Below, piece after piece: positions 14,081-21,772 of a stretch of DNA of 27,031 nt; positions within the stretch are counted from its first letter, which is position 1; the number at the start of each line of letters is the position of its first letter. The stretch is from NCBI GenBank assembly GCA_043816085.1, contig JBDRII010000028.1, positions 1 through 27,031 of the forward strand. Direction: 5' to 3'. The position numbers were made by a program, and so were the translations under genes. The notes under the pieces are model-generated. The model saw only the letters and a list, made by a program, of their open reading frames with translations. It made no database searches and was not told where the DNA came from. This DNA is from Patescibacteria group bacterium. Lineage in GTDB: Bacteria > Patescibacteriota > Patescibacteriia > UBA9570 > JAHJKD01.

Positions 14081-14551
14081 ATGAACAATCAAAAACAAAC
14101 CTACATAACTGAAGAAGGTTTAAAAAAACTAGAAGAAGAGCTAGAGTATTTAAAAAATACTAAACGCAAAAAAATTGCCGAAAGAATTAGAGACGCCAAA
14201 GAATTAGGTGATCTTTCAGAGAATGCAGAATATGCTGAAGCCAAAGAAGAGCAAGGTTTTGTAGAAAGCCGAGTTTTAGAATTACAATCTATTACTAGAA
14301 ATGTTAACTTAATTAAAAAAAGCAAAAAAGCTAATCAAATTGATGTTGGTTCTACTATTGAAGTAGAAAACGCTGAAGGTAATAAAATGACTTACACCAT
14401 AGTAGGTTCCAACGAAGCCAATCCACCCAAAGGCCTTATTTCTAATGAATCTCCTATAGGAAAAGCCTTTTTGGGTAAAAAAGTTGGTGAAGAAGCCGAA
14501 GTAGAAGCACCTTCTGGCAAAATTACTTTTAAAGTTTTAAAAATTAGTTAA
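14081..14551 (+). CDS. greA: Transcription elongation factor GreA
   Basis: GDLSENAEY, AKEEQ and ISNESPIGKAFLGKKVGE. Confidence 0.98.
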   Translation: MNNQKQTYITEEGLKKLEEELEYLKNTKRKKIAERIRDAKELGDLSENAEYAEAKEEQGFVESRVLELQSITRNVNLIKKSKKANQIDVGSTIEVENAEGNKMTYTIVGSNEANPPKGLISNESPIGKAFLGKKVGEEAEVEAPSGKITFKVLKIS

Positions 14552-14563
14552 TAAACTTTAAAT

Positions 14564-14591
14564 TTGACAAAATTAATATTCATGATAATAT
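14564..14591 (+). promoter_or_regulatory. sigma70 promoter for the leader-lysWXYZJK-lysS operon
   Basis: TTGACA (14564-14569), 16-bp spacer, extended -10 TG-A-TAATAT (TG 14583-14584; hexamer 14586-14591). Confidence 0.65.
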
Positions 14592-14610
14592 GGCAATAGT
14601 AAGAAAATAT

Positions 14611-14667
14611 ATGAAAATTCAAGCAATCCAACTTAAGAAGAACAAATTTAACTCTTTACTCGGATGA
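14611..14667 (+). CDS. Putative lysine leader peptide MKIQAIQLKKNKFNSLLG (not in the ORF track)
   Basis: 18 codons with Lys at 2, 9, 10 and 12; its 3' half and stop codon overlap the attenuator hairpins. An in-frame ATG at 14590 overlaps the predicted -10 and is probably not transcribed. Confidence 0.7.
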   Translation: MKIQAIQLKKNKFNSLLG

Positions 14668-14723
14668 GTAGCTAAATTTGTTTTATCTTAAAAAAATAGC
14701 CTCTCAACTGAGAGGTGTTTTTT
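14641..14723 (+). promoter_or_regulatory. Transcription attenuator with pause (1:2), antiterminator (2:3) and terminator (3:4) structures
   Basis: 1:2 is AACAAATTTA (14641-50)/TAAATTTGTT (14673-82) plus TACTC/GAGTA. 2:3 is TGAG (14665-68)/CTCA (14703-06), GCTA (14671-74)/TAGC (14697-700) and TTTTA/TAAAA. 3:4 is CCTCTC-AACT-GAGAGG followed by T6. Pairing was done by eye. Confidence 0.72.
14699..14723 (+). terminator. Rho-independent terminator upstream of lysW (attenuator 3:4)
   Basis: GCCTCTC AACT GAGAGGT G TTTTTT. Confidence 0.8.
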
Positions 14724-14754
14724 ATTATATATCTAATTATTTTAAGTAAAAATT

Positions 14755-14928
14755 ATGTCTAATCAAAATTTATGTCCAGAATGCGAGGGTCAAGTCGTAT
14801 TACCATCAGATGCAGAAGTAGGGGAAATCCTAACCTGTTCTGACTGCTCCTCTGAATTAGAGGTCCGCAGTTTAGAACCCTTAATCATTGAATTAGCCCC
14901 AGAAGAAGAGGAAGACTGGGGTGAATAA
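14755..14928 (+). CDS. lysW: Amino-group carrier protein LysW/ArgW, 57 aa (not in the ORF track)
   Basis: Manual translation gives [57 protein letters not shown]: two CxxC zinc pairs, very acidic, and the diagnostic C-terminal EDWGE. Confidence 0.97.
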
Positions 14929-14932
14929 AATT

Positions 14933-15775
14933 ATGAAATTAGGAATCATTTATTCACGGCTTCGAAAAGAAGAAAAATTATTATTTCTAGAAGCCAAAAA
15001 ACAAGGCATTGATCTTATTAAAATTCAAGATAATGATCTAATATTAGATTTGAATAACAACCAACCTAATATGGATGTCATACTAGAAAGAAGTGCCTAT
15101 CATAGTCGAATAATTCCCACTTTATCTATCTTAGAAAATCAAGGCATAAAAACTGTTAATAGTTTAGAATCAACTAATATATGTGATAATAAATTATTAA
15201 CCAGTGTCAGTTTAGCAAAAAATATCATTCCAACTCCTCAAATAAAAATAGCTTTTACCGAAGAAAAAGCTTTAGAGGCAGCCGAAGAATTAGGTTATCC
15301 AGTAGTAATTAAACCAGTAAGCGGTTCCTGGGGAAGATTGCTTGCTAAAATAAATGACCGCGAAGCAGCTGAGGCAATTTTTGAACATAAAAAAGTTTTA
15401 GGCTCATGTGATCATTCTATTTTTTATATTCAAGAATTCATAAATAAAAATCAAAGAGATATTAGATCGTTTGTGGTGGGCAATCAGACCATTGCGGCAA
15501 TTTACAGAGAGTCAGAGCATTGGATAACAAATACAGCCCGGGGCGGCCTAACCTCCAGGTGCCGAGTTACTGATGAAATTAATAATTTATCTCTTCAGGC
15601 AGCCAGAGCCGTTAAAGGAGAAATAGTAGCTATTGATTTATTGGAAACAAAACATGGAACACTGCTAGTAAATGAGATTAACTCAACCATGGAATTTAAA
15701 AATAGCATTGATGTTACTGGAGTAAATATACCAGGTGAAATAATTAATTATTTAAAAAAAACATATGGCAATTAA
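14933..15775 (+). CDS. lysX: Alpha-aminoadipate(/glutamate)--LysW ligase, ATP-grasp RimK family
   Basis: [24 protein letters not shown]...[26 protein letters not shown] 14933 ([11 protein letters not shown]) is preferred to the track's GTG 14921, which lies inside lysW. Confidence 0.95.
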
Positions 15776-16742
15776 TGTTTCAATTGTGGGTGGATCAGGA
15801 TATGCTGGCGGAGAGCTGGTAAGATTATTAATATCTCACCCTGAAGTTAATATCAACCAAATAACATCTGAATCAAATAAAGGAAAATTTATTTCTTTAC
15901 TCCATCCTAATTTGAGAAAAATTTGTAATTTAAAATTCTCTAGTATTAATGATCTTAAAAAATGTGATGTATTATTCCTGACTCTTCCTCATGGAATGAC
16001 AAAAAACCGATTAACAGAGTTTTCTAATTTAGCCGATATTATTATTGATCTAAGCCAAGATTTTAGATTAAGTGATAAATTTGTCTATGGAATAGCTGAA
16101 TTGCATCGAGGCGAGCTAAAAACAGCTAATTTTATAGCTTGTGCCGGCTGTAATGCCACTGCTACTATATTGGGCTTATATCCTTTTTACAAAGAAAAAC
16201 TTATTCGTGAAAACCAAACTACAGTAGAGGCCAAAATTAGTTCTTCAGCATCTGGAAATAAAGCAAATTTAGGCACACACCACCCAGAAAGAAGTGGAGT
16301 AGTGCGTTCCTATATGCCAACAGGACACAGACATATTCAAGAAATAAAACAAGAACTAAATACTAATAACGTACATTTTTCTGCTACTTCCATAGAAATG
16401 GTCAGGGGAATATTAATAACAGCCCAACTATTTCCCCAAAACAAATTATCAGATAAAGATATTTGGAAATTATATAGGAAATATTACAATGACGAACCAT
16501 TCATCAGAATAATCAAAGAAAAAAAAGGAGTTTATAGGTATCCTGAACCAAAACTTCTTCGAGGAACTAATTACTGTGATATTGGTTTTGAAGTAGACGA
16601 AGAATCTGGCCGAATAGTAATTATGTCAGCAATTGATAATTTAGTTAAAGGAGCAGCTGGTCAAGCTGTTCAAGCCTTTAATATTAGATTTAATTTTCCT
16701 GAAATCACTGGTTTGGAATTTAATGGATTACACCCATGCTAA
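15765..16742 (+). CDS. lysY: [LysW]-aminoadipyl-phosphate reductase (ArgC family)
   Basis: [11 protein letters not shown] Rossmann motif, catalytic [33 protein letters not shown] and [14 protein letters not shown]. Confidence 0.93.
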
Positions 16743-17530
16743 TAATTAAAATCGGCGGCGGCCAAACAATTAATATTAATTATATACTTGAAGATTTATC
16801 TAGTCTTCAAGAAAAATTTATTATTATTCATGGAGCAAATTATTTAATGGATGAATTTTGTACCAAACTAAATAAACCTCAAAAAACCCTAGAATCAATT
16901 TCTGGATTTACTTCCAGATACACTGACCCGGAAACTATGGACATTTTTATAATGGTATATGCTGGCCTCGCTAATAAAAGAATCGTGGAAAAATGTCATC
17001 AATACAATATTAATGCTGTTGGACTTTCTGGATTAGACGGAAAACTAGCCACTGGTCAAAGAAAAAAAGCTATTAAAGCAAAAATTAATAAAAAAATCAA
17101 ACTTATTAAAGATGATTTATCTGGAAAAACTGAAACTATTAATATAGAATTACTAAAATTATTATTAAATAATAATTACACTCCTGTAATTTGTCCTCCA
17201 ATTTTAAGTGAGGATAACCAAGCTATAAATACTGACAATGATACTTTAACCTCGATTATTTGCAGAGATATGGATATAAAAACAATTATTAATTTATTTG
17301 AAGCCCCAGGATTATTAAAAAACCCTAATGATCCAAATTCTTTAATTTTAACAATCAATAAAAATAAAATAAATAATTATATGAAATATGGAGAGGGTCG
17401 AATGAAAAAAAAATTATTAGGAGCAGAACAAGCTATTAAAAATAATGTAACTAAAATTATATTAAGTGATGGACGCATTAAAAATCCTGTTTCAAGTGCC
17501 TTAAATGGCCAAGGAACAATTATTCAATAA
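16736..17530 (+). CDS. lysZ: [LysW]-aminoadipate kinase (ArgB family)
   Basis: IIKIGG, IIHGA, SRYTD, GLSGLDG, basic GQRKK loop, NTDND and GRMKKK. Confidence 0.93.
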   Translation: MLIIKIGGGQTININYILEDLSSLQEKFIIIHGANYLMDEFCTKLNKPQKTLESISGFTSRYTDPETMDIFIMVYAGLANKRIVEKCHQYNINAVGLSGLDGKLATGQRKKAIKAKINKKIKLIKDDLSGKTETINIELLKLLLNNNYTPVICPPILSEDNQAINTDNDTLTSIICRDMDIKTIINLFEAPGLLKNPNDPNSLILTINKNKINNYMKYGEGRMKKKLLGAEQAIKNNVTKIILSDGRIKNPVSSALNGQGTIIQ

Positions 17531-17535
17531 AAAAA

Positions 17536-18681
17536 ATGAATATTCAACAAATTGAAGATCAAAATTTAATTCCAATTTATCAAAAAAGGGATATTGTCCT
17601 GGTAAAAGGCAATGGTTGTTATTTATTTGATGAAAATAATAATGAATATTTAGATCTAGCCTCTAATTATGGGGCAAATATTTTAGGTTATAATAATATT
17701 AATTTTAATAATGCACTAAAATCACAAATAGATAGGCTAACAAATTGCCACAGCAGTTTTTATAATGATACTCGTGCGGCCTTACTGTCTAAACTAAATA
17801 ATTTATTTCCAAATTTTAAATCCTTTATATGCAATACTGGAACTGAATCAGTAGAAGCAGCTCTTAAATTTGCTAAAATTATTTCTAACAAAGATGAAAT
17901 TATTAGTGCCAAACGTTCATATCATGGAAGAACCCTGGGCGCTCTATCAGCAACTGGTATTCCAAAATATCAAAAACCATTCCAACCTTTGATTCCCAAT
18001 TTTAAACAAATAAATTTTAATGATATTAATGATCTAATAAAAAATATTAGCCATAATACAGCGGCAATTTTACTTGAGCCAATTCAGGGAGAAAGTGGCG
18101 TAAATATTCCTAATATTAATTATTTAAAACAAGTAAAAAATCTTTGTGTCAAAAATAATATATTATTAATTCTAGATGAAATTCAAACAGGGTTTAGAAC
18201 AGGTAAATATTTGGCCGCTGATCATTTTAATGTTGAGCCTGATATTTTTTGTTTATCTAAAGGTTTAGGAAACGGCTTTCCTGTCGCCCTAACCCTTGTT
18301 CACAATAATGTTTTTAATAATATTGCCAGGGGAAGTCACGGAACTACTTTTGGCAGTAATCCCATGGCCTGTGCCGCCTCTTTAAAAACTCTTGAAGAAA
18401 TTGCGAATAATCAATTATTGCAAAACTCAAAAAATATGGGAGAATATTTTTTAATTAAACTTAATAATATTAATTCTCCAATAGTTAGAGAGGTTAGGGG
18501 GCTGGGATTAATGATAGCCATAGAACTAAAACAAAAAGCTGGAAAATATGTTAAAGCCTTACAAGAAGAGGGGATACTAGTAATGTCTAATAATAATATT
18601 ATAAGATTATTACCTCCTTTGATAATTACTAAAGAAGAAATTGATTTAGCTTTAAAAAAATTTAATAAAATTTTATGTTAG
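17536..18681 (+). CDS. lysJ: [LysW]-aminoadipate semialdehyde transaminase (class III PLP, ArgD family)
   Basis: SYHGRTLGALS, LEPIQGESG, DEIQTG, SKGLGNG (PLP lysine), HGTTFGSNP and RGLGLM. Confidence 0.92.
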   Translation: MNIQQIEDQNLIPIYQKRDIVLVKGNGCYLFDENNNEYLDLASNYGANILGYNNINFNNALKSQIDRLTNCHSSFYNDTRAALLSKLNNLFPNFKSFICNTGTESVEAALKFAKIISNKDEIISAKRSYHGRTLGALSATGIPKYQKPFQPLIPNFKQINFNDINDLIKNISHNTAAILLEPIQGESGVNIPNINYLKQVKNLCVKNNILLILDEIQTGFRTGKYLAADHFNVEPDIFCLSKGLGNGFPVALTLVHNNVFNNIARGSHGTTFGSNPMACAASLKTLEEIANNQLLQNSKNMGEYFLIKLNNINSPIVREVRGLGLMIAIELKQKAGKYVKALQEEGILVMSNNNIIRLLPPLIITKEEIDLALKKFNKILC

Positions 18682-19688
18682 ATAATATTAAATTACTACA
18701 AAAATTAGTAGAAATAGAAAGCCTATCTGGTCAAGAAAAAAAAGCAGCTAATTTTTTAATTAGGCACACTAAAAAATTAAATTTTGACAAAACTTATAAA
18801 GATGACGCTGGAAATTTTGTAGCTGAAAGGGGAGGCGGAAATAATATAATTTTATTAGTTGGGCATGTTGATACTGTTTCCGGAAAAATACCAGTCCGCA
18901 TAAAAAATAATAATCTGTATGGAAGGGGAAGCGTAGATGCTAAGGGATGTTTAGCTACTTTTATCAGTGCTGTAAATAATTTAGTTAATCTAGAAAATAA
19001 CAAATTTATAATAATAGGCGCAGTAGAAGAAGAATGTGAAACATCTAAAGGCGCAAAATTTATTTTAGATAAATATAATCCAAACGCAATATTTATTGGT
19101 GAACCAAGTGGTTGGTCTAATATTACTATTGGTTACAAAGGCAGTCTTAGGCTTGAATATGCAGATGAGTGCCAAAACTTGCATTACGCTAATCCTGATT
19201 CAAATTTAATAAATAAAGCAATTAATTTTATTAATAATTTAAAAAATAATCTTAGTGAAGACGAAATATTAGAAATTAGAAATTTTAATACAACCAACAA
19301 TGGACTAACTCAAAAAGTTAACATAAAAATTAATATCCGAACATCTCCTAATTTTAATATAAATAAAATTGACAATTTATTGAAAAATAAACAAATTACT
19401 ATCAAAGAAAACATTCCTGGAATAATAGCAAATAAAAATAATTTTTTAGTAAAATCCATGTTAAAAAGTATTAGAAAATCCAGTGGTAAACCAAAATTTT
19501 TACGAAAAACCGGTACTTCAGACTTTAATTATTTAGCGAAGAATTGGCCAAATATTCCTATTTTGGCTTATGGTCCAGGTAATTCTAAACTTGATCATGC
19601 CCCGAATGAACATTTAGATCTAAATGAGTATAAAAAAGCCATAAAAGTTTTGACTTTTGCATTAAATAGTGTTAAAATGGGCGCATGA
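18675..19688 (+). CDS. lysK: [LysW]-lysine/ornithine hydrolase (M20 family)
   Basis: GHVDTV, GRGSVDAKG, VEEE, IGEP, GTSD and YGPG...DHAPNEH metal-binding motifs; last gene of the LysW cassette. Confidence 0.92.
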   Translation: MLDNIKLLQKLVEIESLSGQEKKAANFLIRHTKKLNFDKTYKDDAGNFVAERGGGNNIILLVGHVDTVSGKIPVRIKNNNLYGRGSVDAKGCLATFISAVNNLVNLENNKFIIIGAVEEECETSKGAKFILDKYNPNAIFIGEPSGWSNITIGYKGSLRLEYADECQNLHYANPDSNLINKAINFINNLKNNLSEDEILEIRNFNTTNNGLTQKVNIKINIRTSPNFNINKIDNLLKNKQITIKENIPGIIANKNNFLVKSMLKSIRKSSGKPKFLRKTGTSDFNYLAKNWPNIPILAYGPGNSKLDHAPNEHLDLNEYKKAIKVLTFALNSVKMGA

Positions 19689-21772
19689 TAAAATCTGAAC
19701 AAGAAATCCGGAGGGAAAAACTAACAACAATTAAAGATCAGGGGTCAAACCCTTATCCAAGTACTAGTAAAAGAGATGCTTTAATTTTAGATTTTTTAGA
19801 AAATTTTAATAAGCTAAAAAGAAAGAAAAAAGAAGTAACTATTTCTGGGCGAATAATGACATTTAGAGCACATGGCAAATTAGCCTTTGCCAACCTTTTA
19901 GATCGTACTGGAAAATTACAAATTATTTTTTCTCAAAATGAATTAGGCCCGGATAAATATAAATTTCTAAAAAATATTGATATCGGTGACATTATCCAGG
20001 TTACTGGAACTGCTTTTATTACAGAAAAAAAAGAAGAGTCCCTACTTATTACTGACTATAAATTATTATCCAAAGCCCTAGAACCACTTCCAGACAAATG
20101 GCATGGCATTAAAGATGAAGAAACAAGATATAGAAAAAGATATCTAGATATTTTATTAAACCCAGAGCTCCAAGATATGTTTAGAAAAAAGGCTATTTTT
20201 TGGAATAGTATGAGACAATTTTTACTAGACAACAAATTTATTGAAGTAGAAACCCCAGTATTAGAGACTACTCCTGGTGGCGCAGATGCTGAGCCTTTTA
20301 TTACACACCATAACGCCCTAGACATAGACCTATATCTTAGAATTTCTATGGGGGAGCTTTGGCAAAAAAAATTAATGGTAGCCGGATATGAACGGACTTT
20401 TGAAATTGGTCGCCAATTCAGAAATGAAGGAATTGATCCAGAACATTTACAAGATTATACTCAAATGGAATTTTACATGGCCTACACAAATTATGAAGAA
20501 GGTATGAAACTGGTTGAAGAGATGTACAAGTATGTTATAGCTAAAACTTTTGGAAAATTAAAATTTAAAATAAAAGATTTTGATTTAGATTTTAGTCAAA
20601 AATGGGAAAAAATTGATTATGTTTCTGCCATTGAAAAAAAATATCAAATCAACATATTAGACGCTGATGAAAAAAAATTACAAAAAAAATGTCAGGAATT
20701 AAAACTAGATGTTTCAGATAAAGCAGGCAAAGGCAGATTAATGGATACTTTATGGAAACAAGTTAGAAAAACTATTGCTGGGCCAGCATTTTTAGTAAAC
20801 CAGCCTGTTGAAGTTTCACCCCTGGCAAAAAGACAAGAAAAAAATCCAAAATTAGTAGAACGATTTCAAGTAATAACAGCTGGATCAGAAAACGGAAACG
20901 GTTATTCCGAACTTAATGATCCAATTGACCAAGAAAACCGATTTAAAGAACAAGCCGCCCTTCGAGAAGCCGGGGACTCTGAAGCTCAAATGCATGACGA
21001 AGAATTTGTAGAAGCCCTTAAGCATGGTATGCCACCAACTTGCGGATTCGGCGTATCTGAACGTTTATTTTCATTTTTGATGGATAAGCCAATTCGTGAA
21101 TGTGTTCTCTTTCCCTTACTTCGTCCAAAAAATAATCACGAAATCACGAAAAAACCGAATGTCGCGAAAAAAGAAGAAAAAGAAGAAAAAATTGATTTTA
21201 ATATTTCCCGTGAAAAATCTTTAGAACTTTTAAAAGCCCACATGAAAGACGAGGCTAATCTAAATCATAGTTTAGAAAGTGAAGCTGTGATGAGAGGGGT
21301 AGCAGAACACTTGGGTGAAGATGTAAAATATTGGGGAGCATTAGGGTTGCTACACGACGTAGATTGGGAATACGGAGAAGATGAACATTGTGTAAAATGT
21401 TCTGAGATCTTAAAGGACGCTGGATATGATGATTTATTTGTAGAAACAGTTATATCTCATGGATGGGGAGTAGAAGATTGTGGTAAAGGAACATTAAAAG
21501 ATTTTAAACGAGAAACTAAAGTTCAGCATGCTCTAGCAGCTAGTGAAACTATTACAGGTTTAATTTTTGCGTCGGCCTTAGTTCGCCCAGATAAAAAACT
21601 AGAATCTGTAAAAGTAAAGTCAATTAAGAAAAAAATAAAAGACAAATCTTTTGCCGCCAAAGTTAACAGAAACGTAATAAAAGAATGCGAACAAGTTGGA
21701 CTAGAATTAGATGAATTTTTAGCCATAGCATTAAAATCCATGCAGGGCATAGCAAAAGAAATAGGATTATAA
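19685..21772 (+). CDS. lysS: Lysine--tRNA ligase (class II) fused to a C-terminal HD-domain hydrolase
   Basis: OB-fold GRIMTFRAHGK, RYRKRYLD, IGRQFRNEG, GMPPTCGFG..ER and LFPLLRP ending about aa 481. After a linker, aa ~507-695 carry H528, HD 557-558, ETITGLI, ALVRP and KKIKDKSFAAKV. Confidence 0.96.
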   Translation: MIKSEQEIRREKLTTIKDQGSNPYPSTSKRDALILDFLENFNKLKRKKKEVTISGRIMTFRAHGKLAFANLLDRTGKLQIIFSQNELGPDKYKFLKNIDIGDIIQVTGTAFITEKKEESLLITDYKLLSKALEPLPDKWHGIKDEETRYRKRYLDILLNPELQDMFRKKAIFWNSMRQFLLDNKFIEVETPVLETTPGGADAEPFITHHNALDIDLYLRISMGELWQKKLMVAGYERTFEIGRQFRNEGIDPEHLQDYTQMEFYMAYTNYEEGMKLVEEMYKYVIAKTFGKLKFKIKDFDLDFSQKWEKIDYVSAIEKKYQINILDADEKKLQKKCQELKLDVSDKAGKGRLMDTLWKQVRKTIAGPAFLVNQPVEVSPLAKRQEKNPKLVERFQVITAGSENGNGYSELNDPIDQENRFKEQAALREAGDSEAQMHDEEFVEALKHGMPPTCGFGVSERLFSFLMDKPIRECVLFPLLRPKNNHEITKKPNVAKKEEKEEKIDFNISREKSLELLKAHMKDEANLNHSLESEAVMRGVAEHLGEDVKYWGALGLLHDVDWEYGEDEHCVKCSEILKDAGYDDLFVETVISHGWGVEDCGKGTLKDFKRETKVQHALAASETITGLIFASALVRPDKKLESVKVKSIKKKIKDKSFAAKVNRNVIKECEQVGLELDEFLAIALKSMQGIAKEIGL

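Follow-up and report, generated by a model that had tools for sequence, protein, structure and literature searches.

A candidate lysine-codon leader-peptide attenuator upstream of the lysWXYZJK operon in a genome of the Patescibacteria

The described systems closest to the element considered here are leader-peptide attenuators of amino acid biosynthesis operons. One of them was reportedly found by Tsubouchi and colleagues in 2005 in the lysine (alpha-aminoadipate) gene cluster of Thermus thermophilus, where it is said to precede the major cluster of this GC-rich thermophile, at the end that carries the homocitrate synthase gene. Our literature search found no paper on leader peptides or attenuation in Patescibacteria, also known as the Candidate Phyla Radiation (CPR). 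Here we describe a 27,031-nucleotide stretch of DNA from a Patescibacteria group bacterium (contig JBDRII010000028.1 of assembly GCA_043816085.1, positions 1 to 27,031 of the forward strand; hereafter the window), in which a short lysine-codon open reading frame (ORF), alternative RNA hairpins and an intrinsic terminator precede the gene lysW. We interpret this element as a ribosome-mediated transcription attenuator that responds to the charging of tRNA-Lys by setting how often transcription continues into lysWXYZJK, probably with lysS included, and assign this interpretation a probability of roughly 0.8. The host is an uncultured, ultra-small (CPR) groundwater bacterium; its genome (G000; ~0.94 Mb, 33% G+C, 89.6% complete) is compared below with a second genome of the class, G010, and L and C numbers designate loci and contigs, respectively.

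The spacer between greA (14081–14551) and lysW (14755–14928) is 203 nt long, has 22% G+C and holds the whole element (Table 1). It starts with a sigma-70-type promoter, the only promoter-like site on the + strand from the greA stop codon to lysW; the promoter scan of the spacer found none on this strand between position 14591 and lysW. Transcription from this promoter is predicted to start at ~14598, giving a 5′ untranslated region (UTR) of ~13 nt, and the leader ORF is the single ATG ORF located 3′ of the predicted start within the spacer. A short ORF with predicted translation is present in the transcribed leader, 3′ of the promoter and 5′ of the first structural gene. It lacks a Shine–Dalgarno sequence, and its start, like that of lysW, is A-rich with T at −1, as is usual in G000, where a Shine–Dalgarno core is found in just 11% of 456 long ORFs. 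The leader carries a cluster of codons for lysine, the amino acid of the operon, although in the window alone this signal is weak. Codons 9 and 10 are AAG, the rare lysine codon of G000 (16%, versus 84% for AAA), and the genome possesses separate tRNA-Lys(CUU) and tRNA-Lys(UUU) genes.

Table 1. Positions of the leader elements and of the genes downstream of them in the window.
Feature	Position	Strand	Basis or remark
Sigma-70-type promoter, TTGACA-16-TAATAT with TG extension	14564..14591	+	10/12 matches plus TG
Leader ORF MKIQAIQLKKNKFNSLLG-stop, 18 codons plus TGA (ATG 14611, TGA 14665-14667)	14611..14667	+	
Segment 1, 5′ arm of the long 1:2 hairpin	14633..14652	+	Folding; contains the Lys codons
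Regulatory Lys codons 9, 10 and 12 (AAG AAG AAC AAA)	14635..14646	+	Read from the sequence
Segment 2, from the stop codon on; 3′ arm of 1:2 at 14673-14691, 5′ half of the antiterminator at 14665-14685	14665..14691	+	
Segment 3, partner of either segment 2 (antiterminator) or segment 4 (terminator)	14689..14710	+	
Intrinsic terminator GCCUCUC-AACU-GAGAGGU followed by GUUUUUU, A-run upstream	14699..14723	+	7 pairs, 4 of them G-C
lysW-lysX-lysY-lysZ-lysJ-lysK operon, genes overlapping or abutting	14755..19688	+	Pfam and NCBIfam
lysS, lysyl-tRNA synthetase with C-terminal extension	19685..21772	+	Start overlaps the lysK stop (19685-19688)

The leader RNA possesses three mutually exclusive pairings, 1:2, 2:3 and 3:4. 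Its minimum-energy fold combines a long hairpin (14633–14691) with the terminator hairpin (14699–14716) followed by UGUUUUUU, and has an energy of −31.7 kcal/mol, with z-scores against dinucleotide shuffles of −4.75 (127 nt) and −6.75 (95 nt). The terminator stem alone accounts for −10.9 kcal/mol, or −14.5 kcal/mol with its A/U extension. From the end of this intrinsic terminator to the lysW ATG there are 31 nt, which contain no promoter-like site, so that expression of lysW needs read-through.

The ribosome was then represented by masking the leader codon by codon, and the 1:2 hairpin is lost when Lys codons 9–12 occupy the A site. With segment 1 masked and the RNA cut at the terminator loop, 14665–85 pairs with 14689–14710 at −7.2 to −9.8 kcal/mol; when the upstream part was shuffled 1000 times, 0.6% of the shuffles gave a pairing as good that also includes the terminator 5′ arm. 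For an RNA ending at 14716, the extended antiterminator (−15.3) and the terminator fold (−15.6) are iso-energetic. A ribosome at the stall site would mask segment 1, and a ribosome at the stop codon, which is the first triplet of segment 2, would mask segment 2. A preliminary description of this DNA had reported the promoter, the ORF, the 1:2 hairpin, the alternative 2:3 pairing and the terminator, and had recognized in them a geometry of trp/his type. Sequence and folding recover every one of these elements at the same coordinates, with the Lys codons on the 5′ arm of 1:2, the stop codon abutting segment 2, and segment 2 able to pair with the 5′ arm of the terminator.

We propose that the leader ORF is translated, that its lysine codons can stall the ribosome, and that transcription terminates or continues in response to lysine in the following way. 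RNA polymerase would start at ~14598 from the promoter at 14564–14591, or read in from greA, and the 18-codon leader would be translated while the polymerase advances. When lysine is plentiful, the ribosome would reach the UGA at 14665–67, where it would either cover the start of segment 2 or be released, allowing the 1:2 hairpin to form. Segment 3 would then be free for segment 4, the terminator at 14699–14723 would form, and transcription would stop 31 nt before lysW. When lysyl-tRNA is scarce, the ribosome would stall at AAG AAG AAC AAA (14635–46) and cover segment 1; segments 2 and 3 would pair before segment 4 is made, the terminator would be pre-empted, and the operon would be transcribed.

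Comparison with other lysW loci supports this interpretation. A search through all 32 genomes of the order and a sample of 401 from the class recovered the operon in G000 and G010 alone. The G010 genome is 97% complete, and its LysX is 59% identical to that of the window. Upstream of its lysW, a perfect promoter (TTGACA-16-TATAAT) is accompanied by an ORF of 18 codons, four of them AAG for lysine, by a terminator, and by an antiterminator of textbook form (GUGGGCUG:CAGaCCCAC, −16 to −19 kcal/mol). The ORF starts 144 nt and stops 87 nt before lysW in both genomes, and alignment of the two leaders gives no meaningful DNA identity. A large protein collection yielded LysX matches at 60–69% identity, some of them labelled Patescibacteria, and in the LysX tree the window and G010 fall into a Patescibacteria-type clade with a support of 98. 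A Lys mini-ORF with terminator and antiterminator precedes lysW in 5 of the 6 lineages of this clade with readable DNA, their nucleotide sequences being unrelated; in the sixth (L222), which has TrmB as a neighbour, a leader is not evident.

With the ribosome placed on the first Lys of the cluster, the antiterminators of the five lineages were computed at −8.1 kcal/mol for the window leader (MKIQAIQLKKNKFNSLLG), −19.2 kcal/mol for G010 (MENVVFTTYKAKAKKTHS), −20.6 kcal/mol for L218/L221 (MKIFISLNSYVKENKKSFWSGS), −17.2 kcal/mol for L226 ((M)KSTNISLNVKKSKKGSSLGS) and −17.3 kcal/mol for L227 (MKNVLTVSKKKSKPVR). The peptide sequence is not conserved outside the Lys cluster, and the leader of the window has a transcribed 5′ UTR, while those of G010 and L227 appear leaderless. 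The preliminary description had looked to orthologs for conservation of the leader; this holds at the level of architecture, in G010 and in three further Patescibacteria lineages. The same design is also found before lysW in metagenome-assembled genomes (MAGs) of Melioribacteraceae, Bacteroidota and Pyrinomonadaceae. Those leaders share with the window their position, the overall design, a Lys cluster composed mostly of AAG, and an ORF end complementary to the terminator 5′ arm; they differ from it in their unrelated nucleotide sequence and in peptide lengths that range from 16 to 29 residues.

A genome-wide scan of G000 for ORFs with codon runs located before terminators gave two more attenuator-like elements that match their operons. 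The first is a Leu leader, MNNFSQKNQSALLLLGLLLGFE followed by a stop codon, at 922–990 of contig C90 (L209), with a terminator CCGGCCCTAGTAGGCCGG-T6 (also CCGGCCCUAGUAGGCCGG-U6) at 1021–1044. This element lies ~30 nt before leuC-leuD-leuA-leuB-ilvE, five genes that all score over the NCBIfam cut-offs, and the 3′ part of its ORF is complementary to its terminator. The second is an Arg leader on contig C58 (L210, ~384–512), MNNQINQNLDLRRRNRTFTKREVNF followed by a stop codon, with the run CGA CGA CGA AAC CGA; it is located 33 nt before argG-argH-carA-carB-pyrB-pyrI-pyrC. The end of this ORF (AGAGAGGUUAA) is complementary to the terminator arm UUAACCUCUC; the terminator reads AACCTCTC-ATTT-GAGAGGTT-T7, and its 5′ arm is complementary to the ORF end AGAGAGGTTAA. 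To our knowledge, few Arg-codon leaders have been described. Judging by these elements, G000 apparently uses leader-peptide attenuation, with codon identity tracking the pathway.

A further ORF with a codon run was noted at L211 (contig C99 of G000, ~300–490). It encodes MFIIHKTFISSSSSSLNSP with six Ser in a row, ends in a stop codon, and is followed by a strong terminator located 26 nt before a 228-aa ORF without an NCBIfam match. This may be a Ser-codon leader or a product of chance.

The cognate Leu and Arg leaders of the same genome support lysine, and not arginine, as the signal of the LysW cassette. Lysine is further favoured because the leader of the window contains no Arg codon and G010 lacks argG. 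The preliminary description had likewise named lysine rather than arginine as the regulated product, a view that the Arg leader before argGH and the Leu leader before leuCDAB strengthen. The first half of the aminoadipate pathway was found neither in G000 nor in G010 at the completeness given above. Apart from the genuine leuA/CD/B, no homocitrate synthase, homoaconitase or homoisocitrate dehydrogenase was found in G000, nor was a citrate-synthase-family gene or any other source of aminoadipate. A second Lys attenuator in front of the first half of the pathway was considered and rejected, since the only HMGL/aconitase/Iso_dh cluster (C90) is the genuine leu operon with its Leu leader. LysZ and LysY (window 15765–17530) are the only ArgB/ArgC-like genes in the G000 assembly, and the genome has argG, argH and argF, the latter in two halves at contig ends of C58 and C129. 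From this gene content, the cassette may play a role in ornithine supply.

In several relatives within Patescibacteria, a ~397-aa citrate-synthase-family gene lies between lysW and lysX (L218, 1304–2497; L221, 1228–2421; L226, 365–1558; L223, 136–1329). It may substitute there for homocitrate synthase.

Several observations weigh against attenuation by a leader peptide. One metatranscriptome searched for the locus returned nothing, and no RNA runs with the locus are listed. Close relatives with sequence variation in the leader, which could reveal covariation, were not found in the order, in the class or in scans of genome and metagenome contigs (LysX at most 62% identical); sequencing runs gave either a matching contig identical over the leader or conserved greA pieces only. 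The antiterminator of the window is the weakest of the five, at −8 kcal/mol versus −17 to −21 kcal/mol. Folding with the Lys region masked, as the preliminary description had proposed, bears out its expectation in part: the antiterminator is seen in a co-transcriptional (truncated) setting, but in the full-length RNA at equilibrium the terminator still wins in every case. A switch between the two structures would therefore have to be kinetic. The terminator of the Escherichia coli trp attenuator likewise wins at equilibrium.

The Lys cluster of the window is also a modest signal when taken singly. Shuffling of this AT-rich region yields an ORF that ends near the terminator and has 3 or more Lys within 7 residues in 12% of cases (p ~0.12), and of the 86 other G000 genes with a terminator in front of them, 2 have a comparable Lys-run ORF as well. 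The class as a whole was scored over 21 non-redundant lysW upstream regions with a terminator, drawn from many phyla, with dinucleotide shuffles as the expectation. In 9 of the 21, an ATG ORF that ends no more than 70 nt from the terminator has 3 or more Lys within 7 residues (0.91 expected), and in 6 of the 21 it has 4 or more (0.22 expected). These numbers should be taken as a guide and not as exact values, as the criteria were chosen after the first examples had been seen; one of the nine Lys-positive leaders, L056, is doubtful. The enrichment is confined to Lys, the remaining 19 amino acids showing none in these 21 leaders. What carries the case is the comparison between lineages, the class statistics and the leaders of the same genome rather than the Lys cluster of the window taken by itself.

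These figures bear directly on the first rival explanation, in which the hairpin and its U-run simply terminate greA transcription, constitutively and with activity on both strands, chance has produced the ORF and the pairing alternatives in a spacer rich in AT, and lysW has a promoter that escaped recognition. The value of p ~0.12 for the Lys cluster alone suits such a view, as do the terminator scores on both strands, the lack of any other terminator for greA, and the several relatives with a terminator after greA and before lysS. However, a strong promoter located between greA and the terminator fires into that terminator, and just 31 nt without a promoter-like site remain up to the lysW ATG. 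A chance origin also fits poorly with four other lineages that share the ORF and terminator design before lysW and whose upstream neighbours are not greA, and with the Lys-specific enrichment over lysW leaders (9 versus 0.91 expected). We consider this explanation very unlikely.

Lysine riboswitches control lysine genes in many bacteria, and alternative terminator and antiterminator structures exist irrespective of translation. The hairpins could hence respond directly to a small ligand or to a protein, in the manner of a riboswitch, a T-box-like element or protein-mediated antitermination, with the ORF being incidental. We regard this as very unlikely. No Rfam family is matched at threshold in the window or in 20 other lysW loci, and no riboswitch, T-box or leader family was accepted in the window at gathering or permissive thresholds. 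The lysine riboswitch (RF00168) and the T-box (RF00230) give no gathering match in the window and are absent among the matches to E 10 within 14500–14800. The best Rfam match is Phe_leader (RF01859), whose 24.4 bits (E 0.049) fall far below the gathering score of 55, so the leader is not a member of this family; the match reflects only the general hairpin-plus-terminator layout. Moreover, an aptamer should keep its sequence, whereas only the ORF, the Lys codons and the pairing logic recur between lineages, and the fold is a simple hairpin that has neither a junction nor an evident pocket for a ligand.

The least credible of the alternatives is an independent small gene, encoding a small RNA and/or the 18-residue peptide and unrelated to lysW control, for although promoter, ~125 nt and terminator make up a self-contained unit and an attenuated leader such as rnTrpL can act in trans (PMC12612679), the peptide is not conserved beyond its Lys cluster, the unit always lies directly upstream of lysW on the same strand, and the transcription of lysW would be left unexplained.

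Attenuation in response to charged tRNA-Lys, which was also the interpretation of the preliminary description, thus emerges as the best-supported reading, on the strength of the geometry, the orthologous designs and the cognate Leu and Arg leaders. It would act on an operon whose products are recognized over NCBIfam cut-offs as LysW (TIGR01206), LysX (TIGR02144) and [LysW]-aminoadipate kinase (NF010659). No terminator was found between lysK and lysS, and lysS is possibly co-transcribed under the same attenuator. A promoter-like sequence TTGACT-17-TAAAAT with TG at 19650–19678, ending 7 nt before the lysS ATG, could also serve lysS, and would yield a leaderless lysS mRNA. In most relatives of the order greA is located directly 5′ of lysS, suggesting that the promoter-leader-lysWXYZJK cassette was inserted between them in G000. 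Insertion of the cassette behind a pre-existing lysS attenuator was considered and rejected: the greA-lysS spacers of relatives are short and contain no Lys leader. In G010, the cassette and lysS reside on different contigs, and the sites of the cassette differ among G000, G010, L218 and L227.

We tentatively suggest, as a possibility that we rate below even odds, that the unit made up of the promoter, the Lys leader and the lysWXYZJK genes is a mobile module that encodes half a pathway, regulates itself and has spread among Patescibacteria. Auxotrophic cells would use it to turn scavenged aminoadipate into lysine only when lysyl-tRNA is short, and in G000 lysS would have been placed behind the same attenuator, a T-box-like logic implemented by a leader peptide. 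With the Leu and Arg leaders counted in, attenuation by the translating ribosome might then be the principal form of amino acid control in a ~1 Mb genome without Shine–Dalgarno sites.

Three further observations concern the lysW loci used for comparison. The lysX ortholog of G010 (L002, contig C5, 1495–2346, − strand) is broken by one in-frame TAA into ORFs of 120 and 155 aa, which is due to gene decay or else to an error in sequencing, while the remaining genes of that cassette and its leader look intact. Loci L035, L040 and L139 (Arenicellales and similar; Gammaproteobacteria-type) possess a conserved hairpin GCCGCAUAGAAUGUGCGGC with a U-run at −47 to −24 before lysW and no Lys ORF; the operon may be regulated there by an element of another kind. 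Finally, L058, L122, L052, L078 and L142, from MAGs labelled Bipolaricaulia or Thermotogae, share a 40–42-codon ORF at −270 to −120 before lysW with the conserved end ...LLSPLSFRPKGI and no Rfam match; what is conserved here is a small protein or else an RNA element that happens to be read in frame.

Patescibacteria are thought to be minimal in biosynthesis, and little is known of their gene regulation; here, a genome of ~0.94 Mb contains three putative cognate attenuators, for Lys, Leu and Arg. Classical translation-coupled attenuation would thereby operate in a lineage largely without Shine–Dalgarno sites and with partly leaderless mRNAs: the mechanism is a textbook one, the host is unusual. 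The identity of the leader codons also provides independent functional evidence for regulation by lysine, as protein homology alone cannot separate lysine from ornithine/arginine synthesis for this cassette. Lys leaders before lysW are widespread and have no Rfam family, and a curated family would improve their annotation.

Among known systems, the lysine attenuator of Thermus reportedly resembles the element most closely, with a short Lys-codon ORF, alternative hairpins and a terminator controlling genes of the aminoadipate/LysW pathway by stalling. The element of the window differs from that reported system in standing directly before lysW, in a CPR genome of 33% G+C without Shine–Dalgarno sites, and in preceding a cassette that comprises the second half of the pathway only. 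With the enterobacterial attenuators trpL, hisL, leuL, thrL and pheL (Rfam Trp_leader, His_leader, Leu_leader, Thr_leader and Phe_leader), it shares the four-segment logic of 1:2, 2:3 and 3:4 pairings, regulatory codons on segment 1, a stop codon beside segment 2, and an intrinsic terminator before the first structural gene. It departs from them in the amino acid concerned, in having no sequence relation to them, in its mere three regulatory codons, and in a weak antiterminator (about −8 kcal/mol). With the lysine riboswitch (L-box, RF00168) it has in common a lysine-responsive choice between terminator and antiterminator, here a predicted one, in the 5′ leader of lysine genes; unlike the riboswitch, it matches no model and forms no five-way junction, and its sensor would be the translating ribosome rather than an aptamer.

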